DNA of 64,000 nt from Hyphomicrobiales bacterium (GCA_041691675.1 JBEPUC010000018.1:1363-65362); one strand, 5' to 3'. Counted from the first letter of the stretch, positions 9,356-55,896 are shown. The notes: generated by a model not told the origin, from the letters alone. Made by a program: numbers and translations.

Positions 9356-9886
9356 CTAGCCCACGCGCTTCAAGCCTTTGGCGTATTGCCTCGCGCGGTT
9401 GACGTAATGATCGGCGCCGCCCTTGATCGAAGCGACCGCTTTTTCATCCAGCGTGCGGATCGCCCGCGCCGGCGCGCCGACGATCAGCGAGTTGTCGGGA
9501 AACGATTTGCCTTCGGTCACGAGCGCCCCGGCCCCGACCAGCGAATTCTTGCCGATTCGCGCGCCGTTGAGCACGATCGCGCCCATGCCGATCAGCGAAT
9601 TGTCGCCGATCGTGCAGCCGTGCAGCATGACCTTGTGGCCGATCACGCAATTGGCGCCGATCACCATCGGGTAGCCCATATCGGTATGCAGCGTCGCGTT
9701 GTCCTGTATCTGCGAGCGCTCGCCCAGTTCGATCCACTCATTGTCGCCGCGCAGCACCGCGCCGAACCAGACGCTGGTTTCGCGCTTGAGCCGCACACGG
9801 CCGATCAGCACCGCGGTCTCGGCAACCCAATATTCGCCCTCACCGGGAAACTCCGGCGCCTGTCCATCGAGTTCGTAAATCGGCAT
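9356..9886 (-). CDS. Gamma carbonic anhydrase family (hexapeptide repeat)
   Basis: VWFGAVLRGDNE, IQDNATLH and GHKVMLHGC motifs. Confidence 0.92.
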   Translation of the reverse strand: MPIYELDGQAPEFPGEGEYWVAETAVLIGRVRLKRETSVWFGAVLRGDNEWIELGERSQIQDNATLHTDMGYPMVIGANCVIGHKVMLHGCTIGDNSLIGMGAIVLNGARIGKNSLVGAGALVTEGKSFPDNSLIVGAPARAIRTLDEKAVASIKGGADHYVNRARQYAKGLKRVG

Positions 9887-9943
9887 GGTCTCTCCCTTTT
9901 CAGGGGGCGAACCTAAGCCACGACGGCGGTAAAATGAAAGCTC

Positions 9944-10267
9944 TTAAGCGAGCAGCAGGCCGGCCGCCTGCACCAGGACCATGCCGGACATCAGGCTCCA
10001 GAAGCCGGCAATCAGCGTCGCCAAAAACACGAACTGGAAGCGGCGGCTGTCCTGCCGGTGGCCCATCAGCGTGTTGCGCATGATCAGGAACGGCGCCGTC
10101 AACATCAACAGCGGCACCGCCGCGAAAGTCTGCGGGCTCGGCCCGGCTGACAGCAGGCCGAAGCTCGGCGGCCGGCTGGTCACAAGCTGATAGGTCGAAC
10201 TGCAAAGGCCGGCGACGGCAAAGCCGAGCGCCAGCGACAGCAACGTCTGTAACGATTCCGGAGTCAT
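9944..10267 (-). CDS. Small conserved membrane protein (DUF6949-like)
   Basis: Three hydrophobic segments and a GFWSLMSG motif; host-like codon usage. Confidence 0.65.
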   Translation of the reverse strand: MTPESLQTLLSLALGFAVAGLCSSTYQLVTSRPPSFGLLSAGPSPQTFAAVPLLMLTAPFLIMRNTLMGHRQDSRRFQFVFLATLIAGFWSLMSGMVLVQAAGLLLA

Positions 10268-10333
10268 CGGATGCCTCGAACGCAATACCGGAAACATTAG
10301 TTGCAGGCCTTTTCGGGCAACGCCAGTCAATCC

Positions 10334-10368
10334 TTAACCAATGGTTAACCCAGGTAACGGACCGTTAA
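10334..10368. promoter_or_regulatory. Tandem CtrA-type boxes
   Basis: Perfect TTAA-N7-TTAA at 10334-10348 and GTAA-N7-TTAA at 10354-10368, between divergent genes. Confidence 0.6.
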
Positions 10369-10422
10369 CCGTAACGTGGCACGCAGAGGAAGGCGCGCCA
10401 TCAGAATAATTCGAGACCCGCG

Positions 10423-11148
10423 ATGACCTCCCTCGCCCACCAGCATCCGCACCAGACGCGGCTTCGCGCCGTCAAGCGCCGCGCCGGTCACAGTCCGCTC
10501 GCCGGCCCGGTGTTGCTGTTTGCCGCGGTATGCGTCGCAGCCGCGCTCTATGTCGCTTACGTGCTGTGGCCGCGTTGGCCGGATGCGCCGGTCGAGCGCA
10601 ATGCGCCGTCACTGCCGATCGTGATTGCCGGCGTGCCTTTCAACATCGAACCGGCCGCCATCCGCGTCGCCATGCAGCGTCGTGCCGGCACGCAGAACCG
10701 CCTCGATCTTTCTTATCTGTGGCCGTCGCTGGAGCCGCCCGATCCGGCGATCAAGGTGATCAATGGCGTGCCAGTCGATCCGAATGAGCGCCTGTTCGCG
10801 CTGATCCAGGCCGACGACGGCGCGCTGCCACTGAAAGAGCGGCTTCAGAACATCTATCCGCGTTACATGACGACCGAGCCGGTCGCCGGCCGTGACGGCC
10901 TGACGCTGCGCCGGTTTCGCGACGACACGCCATACAAGGGCGAGGAATTGGTGTTCGAGCAGGACCGTCCCGAACACTTCATGGCGCGGTGCTCGCGCAA
11001 GGGCGTCACCAATTCCGGCACCTGCTTGATGGAACGGCGCATCGGCAATGCCGACATCACGCTGCGCTTTCCGCGCGAATGGCTCAACGATTGGAAAGCG
11101 GTCGCGTCAGGCGTCGATAAGTTGATGGCGCGCTGGCATCCGAACTAG
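10423..11148 (+). CDS. Conserved hypothetical membrane-anchored protein
   Basis: 241-aa ORF with one N-terminal TM segment and a paired-Cys C-terminal region. Confidence 0.7.
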   Translation: MTSLAHQHPHQTRLRAVKRRAGHSPLAGPVLLFAAVCVAAALYVAYVLWPRWPDAPVERNAPSLPIVIAGVPFNIEPAAIRVAMQRRAGTQNRLDLSYLWPSLEPPDPAIKVINGVPVDPNERLFALIQADDGALPLKERLQNIYPRYMTTEPVAGRDGLTLRRFRDDTPYKGEELVFEQDRPEHFMARCSRKGVTNSGTCLMERRIGNADITLRFPREWLNDWKAVASGVDKLMARWHPN

Positions 11149-11159
11149 CCGTGGCGTTC

Positions 11160-11257
11160 ACTCCGCTCGTCCCCGCGAAAGCGGCGACCCAGGGCGAATT
11201 ATTCCTGACTCTGTGTTCGTGGCTCTGGATTCCCGCCTTCGCGGGAATGAGCGGAGT
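11160..11257. repeat. REP/RIME-type palindromic repeat, family A copy 1
   Basis: CCGCTC-(A/G)T(T/C)CCCGC-N-AAAGCGG...GCGGGAATGAGCGG inverted pair. Related copies at 20210 and 59112. Confidence 0.8.
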
Positions 11258-11317
11258 TTGTCGCGCCGCTCATGTTAAATGCGCTCTGCCGTAAGCAGTG
11301 AGCGCGCCGGAATGAAC

Positions 11318-11737
11318 TTACTCGCCCGCGTCGATGAGATCGATGTCGAGGATCGGCAATTCGAGAATGTAGGACTTGCGGCCCTTCTCATTCTCGAGAA
11401 ACAAAACGCCGAGGAAGTCCTCGCCGATATAAACTTCCAGCGAATCCATTTTCTTCGGCCGCACCACGACGCGGATTTTTTCGTTGTCGAATTTCAGCCG
11501 CAGGTAATTGGTCAGCGTCGGCACCGGCTGCATCGAGCGATCCTGGCTGACCTGGATCACCATGCGGAAATTATACGAGCGTTCGCCATCCTCGTCGTCG
11601 ACCGTCATCTCGCCGAGATCGTCTTCACCGACGAAGACTTCCGCGACATCGCCTTTCTTTGGCACCACGCGAATGCTCGGGTTGCCGAATACCTTTTTCA
11701 GATAGCCGTCGAGCTTGCGAACTTCCTGGACGTCCAC
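11318..11737 (-). CDS. DUF3126-like protein with two tandem domains
   Basis: Two similar halves (YLKKVFGNPSIRVVP...EVFVGEDDLG and YLRLKFDNEKIRVVVR...EVYIGEDFLG). Confidence 0.75.
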   Translation of the reverse strand: MDVQEVRKLDGYLKKVFGNPSIRVVPKKGDVAEVFVGEDDLGEMTVDDEDGERSYNFRMVIQVSQDRSMQPVPTLTNYLRLKFDNEKIRVVVRPKKMDSLEVYIGEDFLGVLFLENEKGRKSYILELPILDIDLIDAGE

Positions 11738-34620: not shown

Positions 34621-34841
34621 GGGAACCATCCGCGTTTAAGGTTGATCACGCTGCTCCAACGCTTCGCGCGGCCGGGAGTTCACTAAATCGATCCGGCCGC
34701 CTTCGTGTTGAGCCCGCGCGCGGGATAGTCACCCGAAGAGCCGAGATGCTCCCGGTCAGGGCATTAAACAAATGGTGCGGACGGAGGGACACTACGCACT
34801 AGAAAGATTAACCAATAAAACTCAATGTTTTACGTCGCGGC

Positions 34842-34876
34842 TGACATTTTGGTATGACATTTTGGTATGACATTTT
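34842..34876 (+). repeat. Tandem 13-mer, probable integrase arm-type sites
   Basis: TGACATTTTGGTA x2 plus TGACATTTT, lying between the att repeat and the integrase stub start. Confidence 0.6.
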
Positions 34877-34886
34877 TGAGGCCGTC

Positions 34887-35369
34887 ATGAAGTCATATCT
34901 AGTGCAGCCCAAGGGCAAAGGCTACGCATTTCGCCTCGCCGTTCCTCAGAGCTTGCGAGGACGTTTCCCATCGCGCCAAGGAAGGCCCTTACGCCAGATC
35001 ACCGAAGGGCTCGGCACCGATAGCCGGAAGGAAGCCGAACGCCTCGCCGCCAAGCGCCTCTCCCATTGGCAGTCCGTATTCGACCGCGCTCGCCGCGCTG
35101 TGCCGTTCACCCTTGCCGAAATTCAGGATGCTGCGGTCGAGTGCTACAGGGCCACGGTTTCTCAGCTATCCGGTGTTGCCGATACCATGGCTGACCTGAT
35201 CGGCACCGAACGGGAATGGTTGCAATCACTGGTACGGGTCACGGGGCTAGCCTTGGCCAATGATGATTTCAAAATGGCGACGGCGCACATAGAAGCCGTA
35301 GAGCGGCGGCACGGCGTCACCATAGCGAAAGGGTCGCCAAAAGGCATTCGAGATCATATGCCTGTCTGA
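34887..35369 (+). pseudogene. Truncated DUF6538-type integrase (N-terminal domain only)
   Basis: YAFRLAVPQSLR...EGLGTDSRKEAERLA. Stops at about 160 aa with no catalytic domain. Confidence 0.7.
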
Positions 35370-35777
35370 CTTGGCGCTGTTCCTACGCGAGCCAGAAGCC
35401 GTAATTGCACGTCACAAACTACTATGATTTCGAGGCTCTGTGCCTGAGAAGTACCAACGACCACACGATCATGAGCGCGTCCGATCCGTCGAAAAGATGC
35501 GCCGCGCTTGGGAAACCGGATGGCCTTTTGGTCGTGCGCTACTTCAATGCTCGGCTTTCAGCAATCGGTCGGCGGGCTTCTGGCCCACTATCGGCACTGC
35601 GCTCGCCGCCCAAACATTCTTGGGTGGTGAAACTATGCGATAGCTGCGGGACCGTGGTTGATTTTGATTTGCGAATGAAGCCGCGCGACCCCGAGGCTTC
35701 AATCCGCGTCGTGTAGGCTTGGCGGCACGCTCATCGATTTAAACACCGCCCTTAAATCTTTAATTGAGGAGATTGCA

Positions 35778-36677
35778 TTGCTTATACCTCCGTTCTTTAT
35801 CGATTGCGTCGTCGCGCTCGGCAATATTCGTGCAATTCCGCAAACCGTTGGGCAACCAGCCACAGAACAATGGACGACCACGGGAACAGGCTTCTTCTAC
35901 GGCGCCGCAATTGATCGGAGCGCGTCCTTACATCGCTATCGGATATTTTTAATAACGGCGAAGCATGTTGTTCAATCTTATATCGATAAAGCTTCTGATA
36001 TTCGTGTGCGTGTGAATTCAAAGGATGCAAGCAAGCCAGTGCAAGATTTCGAACTGCCGCATGTTGCGGAGAGCGCCGGAAATTGGTTCTTTCATCCGGG
36101 TGGGATTGACGTCGCAGTTATTTCGGTGAATTGGGAATTTTTAAAAGCAAACAAGATTGAGCCTCACTTTTTTGCAGACAACAATTCCGCTTCCAATCGC
36201 GCCATCTTGATAGACCGCCAAGTTGCGGCAGGTGACGCAATCTATGTATTGGGCTTTCCAATGGGATTAACTGGAGAGCAGCGCAATCAAGTCATTGTTC
36301 GCCAAGGCTGCATTGCCCGCATTAGCGACATGCTCGATGGCGCTGCGCCCGACTTTTTAATCGACGCGTCGGTATATCCCGGCAACAGTGGCGGCCCCGT
36401 AATACTTCGGCCAGAAGTAGTCGCAATCGAACAAACAAAAAGCCAGCCGACCGCAACCTTGCTCGGTCTAGTCAGCAGCTATCTACCTTATGTAGACATC
36501 GCAATTAGCGTCCAGACAAATCAACCACGTATTAGCTTTCAGGAAAACTCCGGGCTCGCTTCAATATTGCCCGTCGATTATATTGACGAGACGATTGCAG
36601 CGTATCTCGCAGCGTTCCCGACAGCGCATCCGATTGAACCTGAAATCCCCCCAGCAGTCGATGTCGAAAAAGTCTAG
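35778..36677 (+). CDS. Trypsin-like serine protease (Trypsin_2)
   Basis: TGTGFF, LITAKHV (His), DVAV (Asp), VLGFP and GNSGGP (Ser); lower GC. Confidence 0.88.
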   Translation: MLIPPFFIDCVVALGNIRAIPQTVGQPATEQWTTTGTGFFYGAAIDRSASLHRYRIFLITAKHVVQSYIDKASDIRVRVNSKDASKPVQDFELPHVAESAGNWFFHPGGIDVAVISVNWEFLKANKIEPHFFADNNSASNRAILIDRQVAAGDAIYVLGFPMGLTGEQRNQVIVRQGCIARISDMLDGAAPDFLIDASVYPGNSGGPVILRPEVVAIEQTKSQPTATLLGLVSSYLPYVDIAISVQTNQPRISFQENSGLASILPVDYIDETIAAYLAAFPTAHPIEPEIPPAVDVEKV

Positions 36678-37014
36678 GCCTCTGCATGGCGCGGGGCGGT
36701 TCGTTCGCCGACCGCCTTTCTAGCGAGAGCCGCGCGTGAGCCGGGTTGGATAAAACTATACCCGCGAGAGCGAGTGCGGGGGTGGCCCCACCCTACCCCC
36801 GGTCTTTTGACCAAGCCCCCTCGATCATTCTGAGCGCGCGATGCCGTCGCCACGCATGGACTAGCGCGGGCCGGCGAAGGCACCGATTGTCTGACGTTCA
36901 TTCCAGCTTGGCCGCACGTCTGCACCGCGATGCCCGCACTGCTCACACCGCAGGCGTGGCCCGAACGATGGCACAGTGACATCATCCGCGTAGCCGCTGA
37001 CATCAAGCACGCTC

Positions 37015-38513
37015 CGATGATGGCAGCTGCGGCCATGCGCCTCAATTCCTCGACGGCCACGGGGCCATCAGCCAGCACCGCCAGCAGGAACGCCTCGGCC
37101 TTGTCCTGCTTGTTGCCCTTGCCGTAGTTCGGATCGAAAGCCTCGGCAGCGGTGATAGCCACTTCGCTGTCCCATATGACGCGCGGATGTTGCTCAATGC
37201 TACCGTCAGCCATCGTGACGGGCGTCGCCTCGATACGATAGGCCAAATTGGGGATGTTGCGCGGGGCAAGATTGTTCTTGCCGCGCATGAACAGGAAGCG
37301 CCCGCTCTCCTGCCCATCATCGCCGCGCTCCGGCGTAACAAGGATCACGGAGCGCGCCGCAGCACCGACAGCATGGCTACCGTTGAGGCGGTTGATGGCG
37401 TTTCCGCTTCCGTTGCCCTTGTTCAAGTGCTGGATGCCGAAGATCGTGACGTGATTGTTTTCGGCCCACTCGGCCAGCGGCGTCAGGAGGCGGCGCAGCT
37501 CGGAGGCGTTGTTGCCATCGACACCGGCCCCGTAATAGGCGTTCAACGGATCAATGGTGATCAGCCGCACGCGCGGCTCACCGGCTTTGTGTAGTTCCTC
37601 CATCTTGGCCTGGAGGTTTGGCAGATCGAGCCAGAGATCAAACACGCGGGCTCCATCCTCGATCCGCACCATCGGTTTGACACGGTGGATCAATCGCATG
37701 TCAGCGCCGGCAGCGACCAGACGAGGGCCGAGGACTTTCGCAGCCCCATCCTCAGCATTGAGGATAAGCACCGAGCCTTTGTCGGCTTTGCCCCCGCTCA
37801 ACGGCATATCGCCGCCCTTCGTGACCGCAGCGACTAGGCCAGCAACTAACGTGCTCTTGCCGCAGTCTGGATCGCCTCCGATCAGCGAGAGCATGTCGGA
37901 AGGGATGCGCGGCTTCCACAGCCAGGTAATAGCTTGCAATTTGACATCGCTCATGCGTTCGAACGCAACGCCGCCAAAATCCGCACCCGGCACAGTAGCA
38001 GGGCTATCGGTGTGCGGCATCAGCGTTGCCGTCTCGTCAGTCTGCGCCTGCGATAGCCCAGAAAATGTTTCGGACGCCGGCAGCCGATACTCGCTTCCGC
38101 GCTCGTTCTCAGCCGAGTTTTCCGCACTGCGGATGAACTGTTGCAGATCGCCTTCATCCCACTCCGGCTCGCATCGCGGGTTCCAGATGTCGCGCATCAG
38201 CGTGAGCATCGTTTCATCGCTAAGGCCGGCGTCACGCAAGAAAGCGGCGGTCTTAAAGCCGGTGTTGTTTCCATCAATGCCGGAAGTGCCAACGGGGCAC
38301 GTTTGCAGCCAACGCTTCGCCACCGCGATCATGTGCGGCGCATCAATCGCAACGCCTTCCGGCGCCGACTTCACGGTGGCCACAGCAACAGTTTCCGGGA
38401 TGCCGTCGAGAACTTCGGCAATCGTCGGCAGCCCGAACATCCGGGCATCCGGATCGCCAGTCGCCTCAAAGCTGACGAGGAACGGCGCACCCTTTTGATG
38501 CAGCGTGCCGGGC
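37015..38513 (-). pseudogene. Primase-helicase fragment (PriCT-like plus AAA_25/RepA-type helicase)
   Basis: PGTLHQK primase remnant, WNPRCEPEW, GDPDCGKST Walker A, ITIDPL Walker B and HLNK. The N-terminus is lost and the C-terminus degenerates near 37015. Confidence 0.75.
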
Positions 38514-40013
38514 AAGTACCATCAGGTTCTCGGTGTTAACCTCGCCATCGAGGCGGTGAAGCAGATCGGCGAGAACAATGGCCGTCTCGGCGTCTTCTGG
38601 CATACGCAGGGCAGCGGCAAGTCCCTCTCGATGGTGATGTTCGCCGAGAAGGTCCTGCGGCGAATGGGTGGCAACTGGACCTTCGTCATCATCACTGACC
38701 GGCAAGAGCTGGACGACCAGATCGCGGGAACCTTCGCCTCGGTCGGAGCGCTCACCAAGCTCGTCAAAGATTGTCAGGCGCAAAGCCGCGTCCACCTGCG
38801 CGAACTGCTGGCAGGCCAGGAACGGTATGTCTTCACGTTGATCCACAAGTTCTCGACAGCCGACCGAGAGCCTATGCCGGTCCTGTCAGAGCGCGACGAC
38901 ATTATCGTCATTACCGACGAAGCCCACCGCAGCCAATATGACCAGCTCGCCGCTAATATGCGCCGGGCGCTGCCTAACGCGGCGTTCATTGGCTTCACCG
39001 GTACGCCTCTCATCGCCGGGCAGGAGGAACGGACGCGCGAAGTATTCGGCGATTACGTCTCGGTCTACAACTTCGCCCAGTCCATCGCCGATGGCGCGAC
39101 AGTGCCGCTCTACTACGAGGCGCGGAAGCCCGAGCTGCAGCTCGCAGCCGAAGAGCTGAAGGACGAACTGGATGCGCTATTGGATGAGGCCGTGCTGGAC
39201 GAGGAGCAGGAGAAGAAGCTCCAGCAGACCTTCGGCAGGCAGTACCACCTGATCACGCGCAATGACCGCCTCGACGAGATCGCCACTGATCTCGTGCGCC
39301 ACTTCTCCGCGCGGGGGTATCTCGGCAAGGCGATGTTCGTCGCCATCGACAAGGCGACCGCCGTGCGAATGTATGACAAGGTGCGCAAGGCATGGGCGGC
39401 CGAATTGGCATCGCGGGAAGCGCAGTTCACCAAGGCCTCCATGGAGGCGCGGACTGGCCTCGCCGAACGTCTCGACTGGATGCGCGCCGTGGATATGGCG
39501 GTTGTCGTTAGCCAAGGGCAGAACGAGATCGACGACCTGAAGCAGAAGAGACTCGACATCCTGCCTCACAGAGAGCGGATGCAGAAGGAGGACCTTGAAA
39601 GCAAGTTTAAGGACCCTGACGACCCGCTCAGGCTGATATTCGTGTGCGCTATGTGGATCGTCGCCTCGATGGAGGAAGAGGAACGCCGGGCTTCGCGCGA
39701 GGGTCTGACCGAAGAGGAACTAGCGGTTTTTGACCTTCTGACGAGGCCGAAACCGAAGCTCTCGAAAGCGCAGGAAGTGGCGGTCAAAAAGGTGGCGCGA
39801 GAGCTGCTCGATAAGCTGCAGGCGCAGCTTGCCGTGGACCAATGGCAGGCAAAGCAGCAGACGCGCGCTGCCGTTCAAAGCACCATTCGGTTCACTCTGA
39901 ACGAGTTGCCAGAGGAGCCTTACCCGGAACCTGTGTGGAACGAGAAGGTGGACGCGGTGTGGGCGTTTATATTCGCAAGACAGTCGGCGGCAGCCGCTGA
40001 AGTGATGGGTTGA
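38514..40013 (+). pseudogene. hsdR: Type I restriction subunit HsdR fragment with an internal in-frame deletion
   Basis: WHTQGSGKS, DEAHRSQY and FTGTP. The sequence jumps from VCAMW (~39655) to the C-terminal EEEERRASREGLTEEELAVFDLL domain. No nuclease domain; no hsdM/S. Confidence 0.8.
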
Positions 40014-40017
40014 ACAG

Positions 40018-40206
40018 ATGACAAGCTCTAAGGACGCCTTGCCAGGTATCACTATATTGATGTTGGACATGGCGCTTAGCTGGCTTGACCGCGCAGCAGA
40101 AACCAATTGTGTGGACGAAGCCAGGGCTGCAATTTTGGAGGCAAAGAAAGGAATCAAACCGGTCTTCGAACTCGCTAGGAAAGCGGCCGCTGCCGAAAGC
40201 GAATGA
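40018..40206 (+). CDS. 62-aa helical hypothetical protein, homologous to 51981-52175
   Basis: Ungapped manual alignment, 14 of 50 identical. Confidence 0.6.
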   Translation: MTSSKDALPGITILMLDMALSWLDRAAETNCVDEARAAILEAKKGIKPVFELARKAAAAESE

Positions 40207-40220
40207 CCGAAGCGGATTTT

Positions 40221-41880
40221 TCATTCCGCCCTCGTCGCATCTGGAGTGCCGTCGTCAACATCAAGGACATATTGAGGAAACTTTCGCATTTCCAATACCA
40301 AATCCTCTAGCGAAGGTGTCTCGTATTTGTCTCCAACGGTACCTGGAGCATGCCCGCACATCGCATCCCTGACACGGCGCTCAATACCGGCACGCGCAGC
40401 CCGCCGTTTAAACGTATGCCGCCATGCGTGATTTGGGCTAATATTTTTGTCATCGACACCGAGAGAACGCACCCAGTCACCTATTTTTTGTCGAACAGAA
40501 ATCCAAGGTGCGCGCACAGGCCGTGTCGGATCAGTACTTTCTCGGCGCTTTTTTGCTCCATTGTAAAAGAGTGGACCAAGGCCCGCGCTCTGAACAAAGT
40601 CTATGAAGCCCTGATCGATAAGGTCGGTATGCAGAGGCACAGTTCTAGCCTTTCGCCCCTTAACCGCACCGGCCTCTGGCGTGATGTGCATTGTCCAAAA
40701 ACCAGCCTTGTGCTGTAGAAAATCCTCCTTACGGACTTGTGTTACCTCTCCCGGCCGTGAGCCCGTATAAGCACAAAGCCATGGCACCCACCGTCGAGCT
40801 GCAACCTGAAAACGACTTGTACGCGCTGTCGGCGCATCAAGCGACGCGCGAAGGATCGTCTTCCATTCACCCTCATTAAACTCACGACTGCGGAGCTCCT
40901 GTAGTTTGCGTGGAACCGCAATAGAAACGTCCTCAAAAGGATTGGCATCGATAATCTTGTTAGCCTTAGCCCATTCAAAGACGGTCGAAGCGGCACGCAA
41001 CCACACATCATTCGCGACTTCAGGCGATCTATTTGCTGTTACAAGTGTACCTTTCCAACTGATTGCGTCCTTATTTGAGATGGAGGCAATGTCTCTATCT
41101 GGGAAAACCTTTTCTAGAGCAAGAAAAACGGAGCGCCAGCGGTTAATGGTTGCTGGAGCAGGTCGTCTCTCTTTCACCCAGGCCTCGAAGACCTGCCAGC
41201 ATGTCACACCAGCGAGCTTCAAAAGACTGTCGGCCGATATCACCGGAAATCGTTGCGGCCGTGGGTCGACGCCGTAATCACCACTTGTCCGACGCTTTAA
41301 AAGCGCGAGCGCAGCCACATATTCGCTCTCGACCTTTTCCAGAAAAAGCTCTCTCGCGTCATCGGTCAGCTTGATCTCCCTTTCTGCAAGAAAGGTCTCC
41401 ATCTGGCCGCGCTCAACAAGATGGGCGTGAACATGGCGTCGGAGTGCGGGTAATTCCATCCACCTTGGATCGCTATCCGGATGGTCGGCATCGTCAGGAG
41501 CAAATCGTGCGTAGACCGCATCCAATTGATCGTAAATTAAATCCCAATGGTGAGATTCACCGGGATCATCCTCATAGCGGTCTACAAACCAGATGTACCA
41601 TTCGCCAGCCAGGCCGTGCGCTTCACGCTGGGTCAGGGAACGCCCCTCGCCCTTAGCAGCAGTTCGGAACGCGGCGATGCGGCCCGAGATAGCCGAGTCC
41701 CATTCTCGAAATTGCTGCTTGGCTTGATCTGATGGAAGGGTTCCTGGCCGGCGGAACCGCTCCTCGCGAGCTATCCCGTGGACCCGCTTGTAGGCGTCCC
41801 GGACGTCACCTGGGATGGCTTTACGGCCAAACCAATCGCCGTTTTTCGCTCGCTGTAATGAGGTCATCGGTACAAGCATT
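40221..41880 (-). CDS. Tyrosine recombinase/integrase with DUF6538 N-terminus
   Basis: YTGSRPGE (R), NHAWRH (HxxR), CGH and DKY catalytic residues; adjacent to the tRNA 3' end. Confidence 0.92.
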
Positions 41881-41962
41881 TGTAGCACCCTTTGTAGCGG
41901 TAGGGCGCTCAAACTCTCTGCTATCCCTCAACTATCTGAGGAAAAGGCATTTTCAACGCTAA

Positions 41963-42049
41963 TGGTGCGGACGGAGGGAATCGAACCCTCACGGGGTTAC
42001 CCCCAACGGATTTTAAGTCCGGTCTGTCTACCAATTCCAGCACGTCCGC
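41963..42049 (-). tRNA. tRNA-Leu (TAA), 87 nt, CCA encoded
   Basis: GCGGACG/CGTCCGC acceptor stem, anticodon loop CTTAAAA, long variable arm and GTTCGATT T-loop. Confidence 0.95.
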
Positions 42050-42160: not shown

Positions 42161-42532
42161 ATGGCTAACTCGGCATTATCTGACGCTTCCATACGGAGTT
42201 TTAAGCCGCCCGAAAAGGGGCAGCTAAAGTATTGGGATGAGAAGCTCCCCACGTTTGGCGTGCGCATCAGCCAGGGTGGCAGCAAGACCTCTATTCTCAA
42301 CTACCGAAACAACTACATCAGCATCGGCCGCTTCCCGATAATCTCGCTGTCGGAAGCGCGCACGCAAGCCAGACGACTTTTGGCTGAGTTTACCCTCGGC
42401 AAAGGGCGCCCCCAGGCCATTACTTACGAACAGGCTGTAGAGGCCTTTCTCAAAGACCGTGCCGAGAAAGCGCGGGCGCGTACCGTGTCGGCGCACCCGG
42501 TGCCGGTAAGACCACCTTCATTTCAGCGATGA
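42161..42532 (+). pseudogene. Integrase N-terminal arm-binding domain (DUF4102-like), truncated
   Basis: LSDASIRSFKP..YWDEKLPTFGVRISQGGSKT..IGRFPIISLSEAR. Homology ends near 42486. Confidence 0.8.
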
Positions 42533-44025
42533 TTGCAGACGACCTGAAGAAGGTCGCCCGCAACGAATGCTCCATCTTTGTGATGGACAGTCAGAACGAG
42601 CTCGTTCCGGATATTTCGAAGCTGGAGATGTTTGCGCCAGGGCGGCCACTACACAATAAACTTATATACTTGGAGCCCGACCCCGATTATCCGTTGGCCC
42701 TCAACATCTTTGACACCAACAAAACACGCTCGCAAAGGCTTTCCTCGAAAGAGCAAGCCATGCTTGAGAGCGGCGCAATTTGGATGGTGGAATTCTTCCT
42801 CAGCTCTTTGGTCAAATCGGAAGCCTCCCCTCACCAAGATACATTCCTGAATTACGTCATACCAGCGTTGCTCGCGATACCCGACGCCACGATTTTTACC
42901 TTCAAAGATTTGCTTGAGGGCGCCAAGGTCAAAAATGGGCCGACAGGTTACGACCATTACAAGCAGCATTTCACCAGCTTGCGCCAAGATACCCAGGAAT
43001 GGCTCCGCGACCGCATGCACAGCCCTGAAATGGCGACGACCCGCAACGCCATACGGACCCGCCTGGACGGCTTCACCGCCCGTGGCTTTTTTCACGATAT
43101 GTTTGCTCATCCCCGCAACAAACTCGACCTTTTTGCGGAAATGCAAAGTGGCAAGGCAATCCTGGTCAACACCTCGAAAGGTTTGCTCAAGAACGGCACC
43201 GAACCCTTTGGGCGCTACTTCATTGCCCGTCTCTTGCAAGCCGCCGAAGAGCGCATGTTTTTGAGCCCAGGAACCCGCCTGCCCGTCTACTGTTACCTAG
43301 ATGAAGCTTCCGACTACATCTCAGAAGAAGAAAATATCGAGGAGCTTATAAATAAGGCCCGCAAGCAAAACGTCGCACTTATCATTGCCAATCAGATGGA
43401 ATCTCAAATCAAATTGCCAGTCGTTCGAGATGCGCTGAGCCGCGTAGCCATCCAATGCCGAGGCGAGCCCGGAGAACCCGGCCAGCCTCCGAAGTGGGAT
43501 ATCGCTATCGGCAATCAACAGTCGGTCCAAATCCAGGTGCCTAACGTCAATTTCGCCACGATGCCGCAAATGTCGAGCGCCAATTATGAGCAAATGCTCA
43601 CCGATATGCGCTGTCGCTTTTCTACATCGGCTGTGGAGCGCGCGCAGACACAGCAGCGGCGTGATGATGACAGGACGGCTAGCGGCGAGACACATCAACG
43701 ACGCGAACCGCCCAAACCCGAGAGGCCCACAGGACCTCCGAGAGATGACGAGTACGACGAGCGCTACGACAGTTTCGAGCTGATGTCGCTGCATCCTGTT
43801 AAAGCCCGCAAGGGAACGGTTCTCACAGTGACCTGCCCAAACGGCCATGAGCATCTACAGCCAATCGCTCCGGGCACACATAATGGCTTTCGTTTTTGCA
43901 TCAGAGGAGTCGGTACTACCCGCCGTCCCGACAATAGAAACGGTAATTTTTGGGTTGAACTTGCTATCCCTGAAATGCGCGAGCAACAGACCGATTCCAA
44001 CGAGACCGACGCAAAGCCGTGGTAA
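42487..44025 (+). pseudogene. VirD4/TraD-like ATPase lacking its 5' end, with a DnaJ C-terminal-like tail
   Basis: Walker A GAPGAGKT at 42490-42513, in frame upstream of the tracked ATG; Walker B YLDEA; ARKQNVALIIANQ. No start codon precedes Walker A. Confidence 0.75.
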
Positions 44026-44133: not shown

Positions 44134-45069
44134 ATGAAAGAGAGAAATTCACGATGGGATGACGAGCCGAGGCTTAAGGACGGTAAGCCTGTCATTGTCA
44201 CGCCGTGCGAAAGCGACCTCAAGCTCTTTCAGTTGCTCCTGCGCTATCGATACCTCCCCGCTAATTTCATACTGCCCTTCACCGGCTTTTATTACAGCTA
44301 CGTCAAAGGCCGCTTAGACGTACTGGCCCGACAGCCGAACAAGTTTTTGCACCGGCCGGAAAAGCAACGCTCGCAGCCAAATGCCGGGTATCGCTACCTC
44401 ATTTATGAGCTTGCCTCTAAAGGCGAGCAGAAGCTCAAGGACGCCGGACTTTGGACGCCTGAACCGCAACTGGGCGATAAAAAGCTCTTTGCGCACTCCC
44501 TCATGGTTTCTGAGACGATTGCCAGCCTGGAGCTTGGCTGCCAGTCAATGATTTGGTGGCCCGAGATTGCCGCCCGCCTCCCGAAGCCCGAGCGCCATAT
44601 CCCCGTTGAAATATCCCACGGCAAGCAAACGGCGGCATTTGATTACTACAACGACAGCAATGGCCCGTTCGGCATCCGCTACTCCGATGGAACGGCGCGT
44701 TTCTTCTCTCTTGAGGCCGAGCACACCAACCAGGTGGATTGCAGTAACCTCCGCAAAACCTCATTTCTCAAGAAGTTTCTCGCTATCAAGCACATCATGG
44801 ATACAGGCGCGTACAAACGCGTCTGGGGCTTGCCCAACCTCGTGACGCTGGTGGTCACCTCCTCACAAGCCCGGATCGACACCATGAAAGACCTCATCTT
44901 GCGGGAAACCAACGGCAAAGGCGTGCGCTACATCGCCTTCTACAAGATCCCCGTCATGGAGGACTTGGAAGCCTCAAAACCCATGCCGGAGATGTACACG
45001 AATGGCTGGCAACGCGCCGGTCATCCCGACCTCTATCTCAACGAGCCCGTTGAGACGAAGTCACGTTAG
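44134..45069 (+). CDS. Replication-relaxation (Replic_Relax) family relaxase
   Basis: N-terminal wHTH-like region, LFAHSLMVSET, FFSLEAEH and LVTLVVTSSQARI, directly downstream of the coupling ATPase. Confidence 0.78.
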   Translation: MKERNSRWDDEPRLKDGKPVIVTPCESDLKLFQLLLRYRYLPANFILPFTGFYYSYVKGRLDVLARQPNKFLHRPEKQRSQPNAGYRYLIYELASKGEQKLKDAGLWTPEPQLGDKKLFAHSLMVSETIASLELGCQSMIWWPEIAARLPKPERHIPVEISHGKQTAAFDYYNDSNGPFGIRYSDGTARFFSLEAEHTNQVDCSNLRKTSFLKKFLAIKHIMDTGAYKRVWGLPNLVTLVVTSSQARIDTMKDLILRETNGKGVRYIAFYKIPVMEDLEASKPMPEMYTNGWQRAGHPDLYLNEPVETKSR

Positions 45070-45078
45070 GAGAACACA

Positions 45079-45270
45079 ATGGAAGCGAAACTGGCTCGAT
45101 TGAAGGACTTGATAGCTAAGCGGGACGAGATCGACGGCGAGCTGTGCCTGCTTTTAGGTGTTGAGAAAAAGGAGCGGAAGCCCCTTTCCTGTTCCAAGTG
45201 CGGCGAACAGGGTCATACTGCACGCACCTGTCAGAAGGACACTCCGGATGCGAACCAGCCACGTGGATAA
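45079..45270 (+). CDS. 63-aa coiled-coil plus CCHC zinc-knuckle protein
   Basis: CSKCGEQGHTARTC = C-X2-C-X4-H-X4-C; RBS AGGAG. Confidence 0.8.
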   Translation: MEAKLARLKDLIAKRDEIDGELCLLLGVEKKERKPLSCSKCGEQGHTARTCQKDTPDANQPRG

Positions 45271-45436: not shown

Positions 45437-46138
45437 ATGAAAGTTCTTACATTGCTCGCAGGAGCGAGCTTGCTCGTTTCGGCCTTGGGCGGGACGGCAC
45501 ATGCAATCACTGTCGATGGCGTTCTCGATGCTGGGTACGGCGCCTCGACTTCTACTGTTACGTATGACGCGAATGCGCAAACCAGCAATTTCGGTAGCCC
45601 TGGCTCTTCGACCAACGCACTTGGTTACAACGTCTATCTCGCCGATCAGGCGGGCACGTTGTACGGATATTTCCAGGGCACAACGGGGACCTCGGCGGGA
45701 GCATTCGCTAACCTCTACTTCGGGCTAAACCATGATCAAGTAGCTGGCTCGATCTTTGGCTTCGAGTTAGGTAACAATAATGCCTTTACTCCAGGTGCGT
45801 CGGGCTCAGTCGCCACGCCGCTCGTGAATTTCGTTGCCTCTGGCAACAACATCGAGTTCTCGATCCCGAACTCGTATTTTGAAGGCGTTCTTGCGGGCCT
45901 CACAAATACGACGTTTGCTCAAAATGGCGACACCATTACCCTTCGTCTCTCCCAGACCTTCGGCTATTCAGTCGCAGGTGGTGACAACTTCGGCACCGGC
46001 GATGCTCGCTTGGGCGAAGTAACTTTGGCTGACGTATCGACGACCCCCCTTCCGGGTACGCTGCCGTTGTTCGCCAGTGGCTTGGGCGCGCTCGGTTTGT
46101 TCGTTGCGCGCAAGAAGCGTAAGAACGCGGCCGCCTAA
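45437..46138 (+). CDS. PEP-CTERM (PLP variant) surface protein
   Basis: Signal peptide; C-terminal TTPLPGTLPLFASGLGALGLFVARKKRK sorting signal. Confidence 0.85.
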   Translation: MKVLTLLAGASLLVSALGGTAHAITVDGVLDAGYGASTSTVTYDANAQTSNFGSPGSSTNALGYNVYLADQAGTLYGYFQGTTGTSAGAFANLYFGLNHDQVAGSIFGFELGNNNAFTPGASGSVATPLVNFVASGNNIEFSIPNSYFEGVLAGLTNTTFAQNGDTITLRLSQTFGYSVAGGDNFGTGDARLGEVTLADVSTTPLPGTLPLFASGLGALGLFVARKKRKNAAA

Positions 46139-52423: not shown

Positions 52424-52981
52424 CTAGTGCTTTTTGATCGCGGCAACTACGCTCGGCATGAGGACGGCGGCAATCCTGGCATGAGACGCGGCAGTGAGAT
52501 GATGCCCATCCGCCTGATAATTTGAGCCTCCACTTCGCATTGGCCCTAAAATCCGCTGGTATGGCGCGACTATTGGCTTTGCCCCATGCGCCCGGATTGC
52601 GCTTATAATTCTGGCCTTATTAGCGTTTATGCTCCCTTCCGAACCGCCGCGCTTCCTGTCGTTATCTCCTCCAGTATCGAAAATCACAACGCGCGTTCCT
52701 GCTGAAATATTTGAAGCCCTGCTCAGCACTCCGCCGCTTGTGTCGCCATTCAGGGCGTTCACGCTCACCGTCACGTCATACCCCTTCGCCCGCAACATAC
52801 GCTCAAGCTGCGCTGGCCATGCTTCCGATGTAGAAACACCCCTGCCGTTGGTATTGCTTGCGCCGAGAGCCAATATCTTAACTGTCTCAGCACGAGCCAC
52901 GCCCGGCCCACCAAGCGCGAATAATCCAACGAACAGCACAGCAGTTAGCAGATGTCTTTTAGAATGCCCCTTTTGCACCAC
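52424..52981 (-). CDS. Exported SGNH/GDSL hydrolase
   Basis: LALGASNT block I, NALNGDTS, DTGGDND and DGHH block V. Confidence 0.85.
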   Translation of the reverse strand: MVQKGHSKRHLLTAVLFVGLFALGGPGVARAETVKILALGASNTNGRGVSTSEAWPAQLERMLRAKGYDVTVSVNALNGDTSGGVLSRASNISAGTRVVIFDTGGDNDRKRGGSEGSINANKARIISAIRAHGAKPIVAPYQRILGPMRSGGSNYQADGHHLTAASHARIAAVLMPSVVAAIKKH

Positions 52982-55855: not shown

Positions 55856-55896
55856 GATTTTAAGTCCGGTCTGTCTACCAATTCCAGCACGTCCGC
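55856..55896 (-). pseudogene. 5' half of tRNA-Leu left at the host-side attachment site
   Basis: Identical to 42009-42049; diverges right after the anticodon loop. Confidence 0.9.

Follow-up and report, generated by a model that had tools for sequence, protein, structure and literature searches.

A decayed coupling-type ATPase gene on a tRNA-Leu island of a Hyphomicrobiales bacterium ends in a DnaJ C-terminal-like domain

A 64,000-nucleotide stretch of DNA from a Hyphomicrobiales bacterium (GCA_041691675.1, JBEPUC010000018.1:1363-65362; hereafter the window) contains an open reading frame (ORF) for an ATPase resembling the type IV coupling proteins (T4CPs) of conjugation, and the protein, P0001, ends in a tail that resembles a C-terminal domain (CTD) of the chaperone DnaJ. 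Taking all lines of evidence together, we think it likely that the ORF is the 3' two-thirds of a very divergent T4CP gene, which formed a mobilization module with a neighbouring relaxase gene and was inactivated by a deletion, and that in intact members of the family the CTD may act as a receptor. Among the coupling ATPases of conjugation, the tail sets apart a subgroup that is rare and not previously described, and that is encoded beside a relaxase gene on mobilizable elements. Coordinates of the gene, its parts and the surrounding features are collected in Table 1.

Judged from profiles and predicted structures, the tail is homologous to CTD-II of DnaJ/Hsp40 proteins, and the close likeness to DnaJ_C that a preliminary description had noted by eye was borne out by Pfam, family profile, hhalign, Foldseek and VIA alike. 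Searched alone, the window tail matched the Pfam profile PF01556 (DnaJ_C) over profile positions 91-149 of 152 (E 6.7e-4, 20.1 bits). This score misses the gathering threshold (20.0-20.1 vs 26.6 bits), which is exceeded by relatives such as P0010 (28.9 bits), and DnaJ_C matches at E<=0.01 were obtained in 9 of 17 tail-bearing proteins, the best at 1e-7. A family profile run against all PDB sequences gave significant matches solely to the CTDs of DnaJ and CbpA (3lz8, E 1.1e-5; 6jzb; 3i38). When the tail profile was compared by hhalign with proteins of the host genome itself, its DnaJ was matched at residues 264-336 with 95% probability (E 3.5e-8) and its CbpA-like protein with 95.4%. The motif ..P.GT..G..fr..G.G....GNfwVel.I is shared with the CTD-II of DnaJ, CbpA and Hsp40 (PF01556).

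Modelling of the tail with AlphaFold and comparison of the models with Foldseek, proposed as a check in the preliminary description, likewise predicted an Hsp40 CTD fold. In the model of the window tail alone the core has a predicted local distance difference test (pLDDT) score of 84-90 and forms the same domain as in the model of P0002, a full-length relative 79% identical to P0001 whose model was built with 97 sequences; there a compact beta domain (residues 690-766) reaches 88-97. The residues after the CTD are disordered in both models, including the last 15 of P0002. Foldseek matched the window tail model to Hsp40 CTDs only, best to 6jzb (E 3e-5, root-mean-square deviation (rmsd) 1.5 A over 68 columns), with a probability of 1.00 to 6jzb, 9zm4, 4j80, 3i38, 2b26 and 1xao. 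With VIA, Hsp40 entries filled the best 28 rows for the window tail (Z 10.1-5.3), and the first unrelated fold after them stood at Z 3.9; the aligned ranges fall mainly in CTD-II (Hdj1 248-333, Sis1 258-346, Ydj1 260-337 and Thermus DnaJ 180-260; Z 9-10). A chance or compositional match would be in keeping with the window's own Pfam score under the curated cut-off, but as independent profile, profile-profile and fold evidence concur and leave a clear gap to unrelated folds, such a match is extremely improbable. Searches of the ESM Atlas returned only DnaJ_C fragment clusters (scores 0.87-0.89), which are a lead and not evidence.

The homology covers one CTD. Of the DnaJ substrate-binding region named in the preliminary description, CTD-II is present and the whole two-domain region is not; unlike DnaJ, CbpA and Hsp40 proteins, which have two tandem CTDs with a dimerization helix, the window family has a single CTD. 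No match to the J domain (PF00226) was found in P0001 or in any full-length relative scanned, and neither a zinc-finger domain, a G/F region, a CTD-I nor a dimerization helix was found around the single CTD. With all of these parts missing, the tail protein is not a J-domain co-chaperone and could not by itself stimulate DnaK. The peptide originally quoted from the tail is present exactly, as residues 419-481 of the ORF (nucleotides 43783-43971, plus strand), and the charged linker reported ahead of it is also there and predicted to be disordered. Two details needed correction. The tail had been started at 43770, one base out of frame (the frame begins at 43771, and translation from 43770 runs into stops), and the ORF had been ended at ...LAIP, beyond which there are 17 more residues (EMREQQTDSNETDAKPW), the final seven conserved in relatives. 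In P0001 the beta domain is followed by a 16-residue end terminating in ETDAKPW. A metal site or disulfide formed by the Cys-His-Cys of the window tail was considered and rejected, the first Cys being Ala or Leu in many relatives.

Homologues of the ATPase were drawn from a 5.8-billion-protein collection and are mostly 600-850 amino acids long, the intact relatives 670-830. Intact relatives consist of N-terminal membrane helices, an N-domain, a VirD4/TrwB/DotL-type ATPase, an acidic disordered linker, the CTD and an acidic-aromatic motif. One to three N-terminal hydrophobic helices were seen by hydropathy scan in many full-length relatives, and at the level of the family the Walker A and B residues G277, K278, T279, D542 and E543 are invariant in 97 sequences. 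In the P0002 model (mean pLDDT 90.3) the ATPase has the fold of TrwB and DotL, including the insertion of an all-alpha domain. Its best Foldseek matches are to TrwB (E 6.5e-10 to about 4e-9, TM-score 0.51-0.58 on the target), with DotL also among the best; VIA gave DotL at Z 25.5 over 345 residues (rmsd 3.5) and TrwB at Z 23.9 over 325 residues, compared with HerA (Z 19.7), FtsK (Z 15.5) and TcpA (Z 14.4). The family thus has the same ATPase fold, with the all-alpha insertion, as TrwB of R388 and DotL of Legionella, from which it differs in sequence (10-13% identity) and in adding an N-domain of about 250 residues and the DnaJ-CTD tail. The modelled fold places the ATPase in the VirD4/VirB4 branch without separating the two, and it is gene context that separates them.

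That context is a relaxase. Of 14 related loci, 13 have a homologue of the 311-amino-acid gene at 44134-45069 beside or near the ATPase gene, in most cases immediately downstream of it (BLAST E 1e-161 to 1e-6). The profile PF13814 describes the MOBC relaxase class (PMC5357655). The window protein has no PF13814 match at E<=1. Two of its homologues pass the profile's cut-off (40.8 and 27.2 bits vs 25.3), and these match the window protein by BLAST at E 7e-19 and 2e-26. On Sulfitobacter and Sinorhizobium plasmids the ATPase is annotated as a type IV secretion system (T4SS) DNA-transfer protein or as a 'TraM recognition domain' protein, and a 'replication-relaxation family protein' directly follows it. 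In these loci, the window included, the genes of the coupling-type ATPase and the relaxase belong to one transfer or mobilization module. By its gene content, the ATPase gene with the downstream Replic_Relax gene is a putative two-gene mobilization module like MobB/MobC of CloDF13, and it sits on integrase-bearing islands and on small plasmids without mating-pore genes.

Compact mobilizable elements made of coupling protein, relaxase and integrase are known (PMC5357655), and the T4CP of MOBC1 plasmids, CloDF13 among them, is encoded by the plasmid itself (PMC7434980, PMC7431656). CloDF13 MobB, with MobC, offers the nearest parallel, as an element's own coupling protein beside a relaxase of the MOBC/Replic_Relax class (PMC7431656, PMC7434980); its N-terminal membrane domain is essential (PMC7431656), and the window family is likewise anchored in intact relatives. 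Unlike MobB, the window family is found in alphaproteobacteria, with many copies on tRNA-integrated islands, and no sequence match to enterobacterial plasmids was detected at E<=1e-5. We know of no folded chaperone-like C-terminal domain reported for CloDF13 MobB. All 11 plasmids with an ATPase homologue (e.g. NZ_CP081110.1 and NZ_LN735562.1) are typed 'non-mobilizable' by MOB-suite, and the two plasmids inspected carry the pair of T4CP and replication-relaxation genes. Because plasmids bearing the module are typed in this way, mobilizable elements are probably under-counted; the module seems to be invisible to standard mobility typing. In several related loci (L027:6784-8178, L024:3361-4413 and others) a second, shorter paralogous ATPase of 350-465 amino acids is encoded just upstream. 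This paralogue passes T4CP hidden Markov model (HMM) cut-offs (TrwB_AAD_bind, 26 bits; T4SS-DNA_transf, 23.9 bits), which would give two coupling-type ATPases per module.

The copy in the window is incomplete. P0001 aligns solely with the C-terminal two-thirds of its homologues, and in the alignment relatives read '...QWIVGAPGxGKTTFISAMIADDLKK...', the window ORF beginning at that internal Met. The 47 stop-free codons upstream of 42529 encode VGAPGAGKTTFISA, and no ATG, GTG, TTG or rarer table-11 start was found among them before 42520, which is itself past the P-loop; use of a rare start codon taking in the P-loop was therefore rejected. By tblastn, integrase homology was located at 42161-42457, with intact integrases from loci L024 and L002 as queries, and ATPase homology at 42481-44022. 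An intact tyrosine integrase has about 385-400 amino acids, while the stub ORF runs out of frame to a TGA at 42530-42532. Logan contigs, independently assembled from the probable source metagenome, tile over the junction. A variant Logan contig equals the window as far as 42488; past this point it stays in the integrase frame and reads ...RTVYDYTLLLARL, a continuation that resembles intact integrase relatives at the same point; the deletion was placed between 42488 and 42489 on this basis, and the variant hints that an undeleted integrase is present in the same metagenome sample. Related loci have the gene order integrase, 1.7-2.2 kb of small genes, ATPase and a gene of 311-333 amino acids, from which about 3.5-4 kb would have been lost in the window.

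The deletion fused integrase codon ~109 to the codon just before the ATPase P-loop. Lost with it were the remainder of the integrase, the genes in between, and both the membrane domain and the N-domain of the ATPase. Neither a second ATPase copy nor the missing N-terminal half was found elsewhere in the genome; supply of the N-terminal half by a second copy was rejected, the genome having a single one. A nucleotide-binding domain with Walker A and Walker B is described as the defining feature of T4CPs (PMC7431656). The window ORF keeps Walker B, but the Walker A codons lie upstream of all possible starts, and the N-terminal transmembrane region is deleted from P0001 (by hydropathy scan only). 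Since T4CP function is abolished by loss of the membrane domain or by mutation of the Walker A lysine (PMC7431656), the window gene, a 5'-truncated remnant, should be inactive as a motor, and with no start codon ahead of Walker A it could not work as one. The island around it, about 13.9 kb long and bounded by 41-bp direct repeats at tRNA-Leu(TAA), is decaying and the gene is a relic in it. Genes for ArdC, DUF3768 and a zinc-knuckle protein are also present on the island, and the ORFs scanned there include none for a mating pore or a virion. A working form of the VirD4/TraD-like motor inferred in the preliminary description is consequently not encoded in the window, where membrane domain, N-domain and a translatable Walker A are lacking; at the level of the family the assignment stands, on the DotL/TrwB folds, the plasmid relatives annotated as T4CPs and the relaxase partner.

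The tail is rare. An exhaustive phmmer search with the tail against 1.84 billion representatives gave 14 clusters at E<=1e-10; all matches are C-terminal, and the same ATPase core is present in every match long enough to judge. With a tail HMM, 33 of the collected proteins were recovered. Neither 72,556 plasmids, nor 400 other sampled genomes of the class, nor the matches from 400 other genomes of the order contained the tail. Scans of genome, metagenome and viral collections yielded only the loci L002, L022, L023 and L024, with the tail in L002 alone. The idea that homologous ATPases share the tail therefore holds for these 33 proteins and fails for most of the wider ATPase family, which is without it. 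With or without the CTD, nearly all members of the family have an acidic stretch at the end of the chain and an aromatic residue no more than a few positions from the C-terminus (examples of family C-termini are ETDAKPW, DTDPKPW, DDYDPLR, TGPAKY, GDWEP and PMKW). CloDF13 MobB also ends in ...DDDFAGLY, by translation of a primer given in PMC7431656.

Two types of tail can be distinguished: type A, as in the window, and type B, which is more DnaJ-like (...IRIxPGTxNGHRVRLxGKGA.KPDGTFGDAYITF). In a FastTree phylogeny of the motor core, a tail is present in 13 of the 14 proteins that form the clade of the window, where types A and B are interspersed; type A also occurs in two distant core lineages, and at least four changes are needed on the core tree. 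The tail of P0058 (70 residues) is identical to that of P0003, yet their cores are only about 40% identical; either recombination in the recent past or a metagenome contig that is chimeric may account for the identity of these tails. In the three loci that can be compared, presence of the tail matches the type of relaxase, not the core. L002, which has the tail, is 61.6% identical to the window in the core and 67.3% in the relaxase, whereas the tail-less L023 and L024 are 62.4% and 67.6% identical in the core and 28.3% and 24.7% in the relaxase, respectively. Tails appear, from these comparisons, to have been swapped between motor cores. L002 is also the only tail-bearing relative among the GTDB species genomes, and its ATPase gene has a frameshift at the P-loop (9871-9972 vs 9968-11509), either a sequencing error of the metagenome-assembled genome or a further, independent inactivation at this site. 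Truncation of L002 at the same point as the window was rejected, as tblastn showed the frameshift to be at the P-loop with a divergent N-terminal region upstream.

Several observations weigh against the explanation preferred here. T4CP HMM cut-offs (PF10412, PF02534, PF12696 and NCBIfam) were reached by neither P0001 nor P0002, and curated HMMs matched the ATPase below threshold only (TraG-D_C, 16.2 bits vs a cut-off of 22 for P0001; TrwB_AAD_bind, 20.1 vs 20.5 for P0002; DUF87; FtsK). Family-profile searches of PDB sequences found no T4CP and no usable ATPase match, giving only weak similarity to the Walker B regions of ABC, HerA and FtsK proteins. VIA comparisons of P0002 leave the T4CPs level with VirB4 (Z 25.4) and with the DndH C-domain (Z 23.7). 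A VirB4 helper was not found in the 92.7%-complete host genome. The frame of the window gene is open for 545 codons and its ATG overlaps the TGA of the stub (ATGA), so that some product is possible, and metagenome contigs may be chimeric. As for exchange of the tail, long branches occur in the FastTree topology, and that tail and relaxase segregate together is seen in three loci and could be due to physical linkage alone.

The ties with VirB4 and DndH/DptH, together with the weak DUF87/HerA Pfam matches, would fit an ATPase family that is not a T4CP but another motor of the FtsK/HerA/VirB4 class, serving defence, phage DNA handling or the pumping of double-stranded DNA. Two relatives on IMG/VR 'viral' contigs and the MOB-suite typing of the plasmids point the same way. 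This is quite improbable in our judgement, because 13 of 14 loci have a relaxase gene of the MOBC type alongside the ATPase, placed immediately after it on two plasmids, partners of the nuclease or Sir2 kind are absent, relatives have an N-terminal membrane anchor, TrwB and DotL are the best Foldseek matches, ArdC is encoded in the same island, and a paralogue in related loci passes T4CP cut-offs. The open frame, for its part, raises the possibility that the shortened ORF is still in use, for a soluble, ATPase-dead but CTD-bearing protein that might be, for example, a decoy against incoming related elements. The 79% identity to an intact relative would agree with this, the overlap of start and stop at 42529-42532 would permit coupled translation if the stub were expressed, and a chimeric T4CP has been reported to be dominant-negative (PMC7431656). 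However, no Shine-Dalgarno sequence precedes 42529, promoter and stub of the integrase may not be expressed at all, the deletion resembles ordinary decay and also kills the integrase, and a recent deletion would account for the intact frame equally well. Continued use is improbable on balance, and the gene is read here as the remnant of a T4CP.

Hsp40 CTDs bind clients, and the PDB entries of the 6pq and 6pr series among the fold matches of the tail are Hsp40 client complexes. By analogy, intact members of the family would carry six flexibly tethered CTD-like domains per hexamer as a substrate receptor. In the way DnaJ CTDs deal with their clients, these may capture the cognate relaxase, or an accessory protein, by a segment that is extended or unfolded and pass it on to the motor, perhaps with holdase activity. 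The aromatic motif at the end of the chain would provide a second docking peptide, common to the whole family and comparable to the tail by which TraD binds TraM. C-terminal domains of T4CPs are known receptor sites, as in TraD-TraM and DotL-IcmSW (PMC7434980). A holdase role for the CTD is suggested by the need of relaxases to unfold in order to pass the transport channel (PMC10359608). TraD of the F plasmid is similar in having an acidic C-terminal extension whose short end motif recognises the cognate relaxosome via TraM (PMC7434980) and differs in having no beta-sandwich domain; DotL receives separate chaperone-like adaptors (IcmSW) on its C-terminal extension, whereas in the window family a chaperone-type domain is built in.

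That the tail is a receptor for the relaxase or an accessory protein in intact relatives is, we infer, a serious candidate, although not one that we would call probable; in its favour we count that the tail occurs only at the C-terminus of the ATPase, is patchy on the core tree and goes with the relaxase. More doubtful is the fuller proposal that a captured DnaJ client-binding domain acts as an exchangeable built-in chaperone module, which would recognise the cognate MOBC relaxase and keep it unfolded for secretion. If this were true, it would be the first T4CP with substrate recognition and holdase activity in one polypeptide, and a cassette of tail plus relaxase would move between motor cores by recombination.

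The CTD might instead dock the coupling protein onto the helper secretion machine, or join subunits, for instance by recognising a neighbour's acidic C-terminal peptide, on the model of the class B Hsp40 CTD-I that binds the EEVD tail of Hsp70. T4CPs of mobilizable elements must fit foreign T4SSs, and an exchange of tails among cores would fit a switch of helper as well. Hsp40 CTDs bind C-terminal acidic peptides, 3agz and 2b26 are among the fold matches of the tail, and the ATPase itself ends in an acidic-aromatic peptide. Yet the terminal motif is found in most CTD-less relatives, which implies another partner for it, AlphaFold leaves the last 15 residues undocked (pLDDT <50), the tail matches CTD-II best and not CTD-I, and it goes with the relaxase in the three loci; docking or joining is for these reasons unlikely, and the receptor role is the one we favour. 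Docking of ETDAKPW back onto its own CTD was considered separately and found no support (pLDDT <50 in both models).

No description of a T4CP-DnaJ_C fusion, and no paper linking T4CPs with DnaJ_C, was found in the literature searched, in agreement with the preliminary description, to whose author such a fusion was not known. The question for the field is how coupling proteins pick their substrates and how relaxases stay fit for transport. The solutions known are of two kinds: acidic tails that are disordered, as in TraD, and adaptors or chaperones made as proteins of their own, as in DotL with IcmSW. If its role is as proposed, a folded client-binding domain of Hsp40 type on the same chain as the motor would be a third, and a compact model for studies of recognition. 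The two natural tail types and the tail-less relatives provide ready-made swap experiments. More broadly, a module of T4CP and MOBC relaxase appears to be common in alphaproteobacterial islands and small plasmids and too divergent for curated HMMs and MOB-suite.

Table 1. Features of the ATPase gene and the adjoining part of the window
Feature	Position	Strand	Remarks
Truncated T4CP-like ATPase ORF, P0001	42529..44025	+	498 amino acids; corresponds to residues 285-781 of full-length relative P0002, 79% identity
Walker A codons GAPGAGKT	42490..42513	+	In frame with the ATPase ORF, no table-11 start codon upstream
All-alpha insertion, residues ~65-205, counterpart of the T4CP all-alpha domain	42721..43143	+	P0002 model helices 349-489, offset 284
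Walker B YLDEA	43294..43308	+	D and E invariant in 97 relatives
Charged disordered linker, residues ~376-404	43654..43740	+	Equivalent P0002 residues 660-688, pLDDT <50
Predicted DnaJ CTD-II-like beta-sandwich domain, ~75 residues (~408-482)	about 43750..43974	+	Pfam, profile, hhalign, fold
C-terminal motif ETDAKPW	44002..44022	+	Local form of the acidic-plus-aromatic C-terminus common to the whole ATPase family
Partner gene, Replic_Relax (MOBC-type) relaxase homologue, 311 amino acids	44134..45069	+	BLAST against ATPase neighbours in related loci
Integrase stub, Arm DNA-binding N-terminus only (~109 codons)	42161..42488	+	Pfam Arm-DNA-bind_3, E 9e-11; tblastn
Deletion junction (42488/42489), few bases common to both parents	42481..42489		ATPase homology from 42481; variant contig diverges after 42488
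tRNA-Leu(TAA), island attachment site	41963..42049	-	ARAGORN
Left copy of 41-bp direct repeat, equal to the tRNA 5' half	42009..42049		Exact k-mer match
Right copy of 41-bp direct repeat	55856..55896		Exact k-mer match

Nine bp past the relaxase gene the island encodes a 63-amino-acid CCHC zinc-knuckle protein (45079-45270, plus strand; PF00098, 21.2 bits vs a cut-off of 20.8). Zinc knuckles are unusual in bacteria, and this protein may be a relaxosome accessory protein. Apparent cargo follows in the form of a secreted-looking protein with a PEP-CTERM sorting signal (45437-46138, plus strand; PF07589, 22.4 bits), and a GDSL-lipase-like gene is located at 52424-52981 on the minus strand. On the other side of the tRNA lies a second element (34773-41962), with a 17-nt repeat of the tRNA 3' end at 34773-34789, giving a tandem array at one tRNA. 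This element carries a 563-amino-acid integrase-like gene (40221-41912, minus strand), a short type I restriction HsdR-like ORF of 502 amino acids (38505-40013) and an AAA_25/PriCT_1 gene (36674-38515, minus strand).

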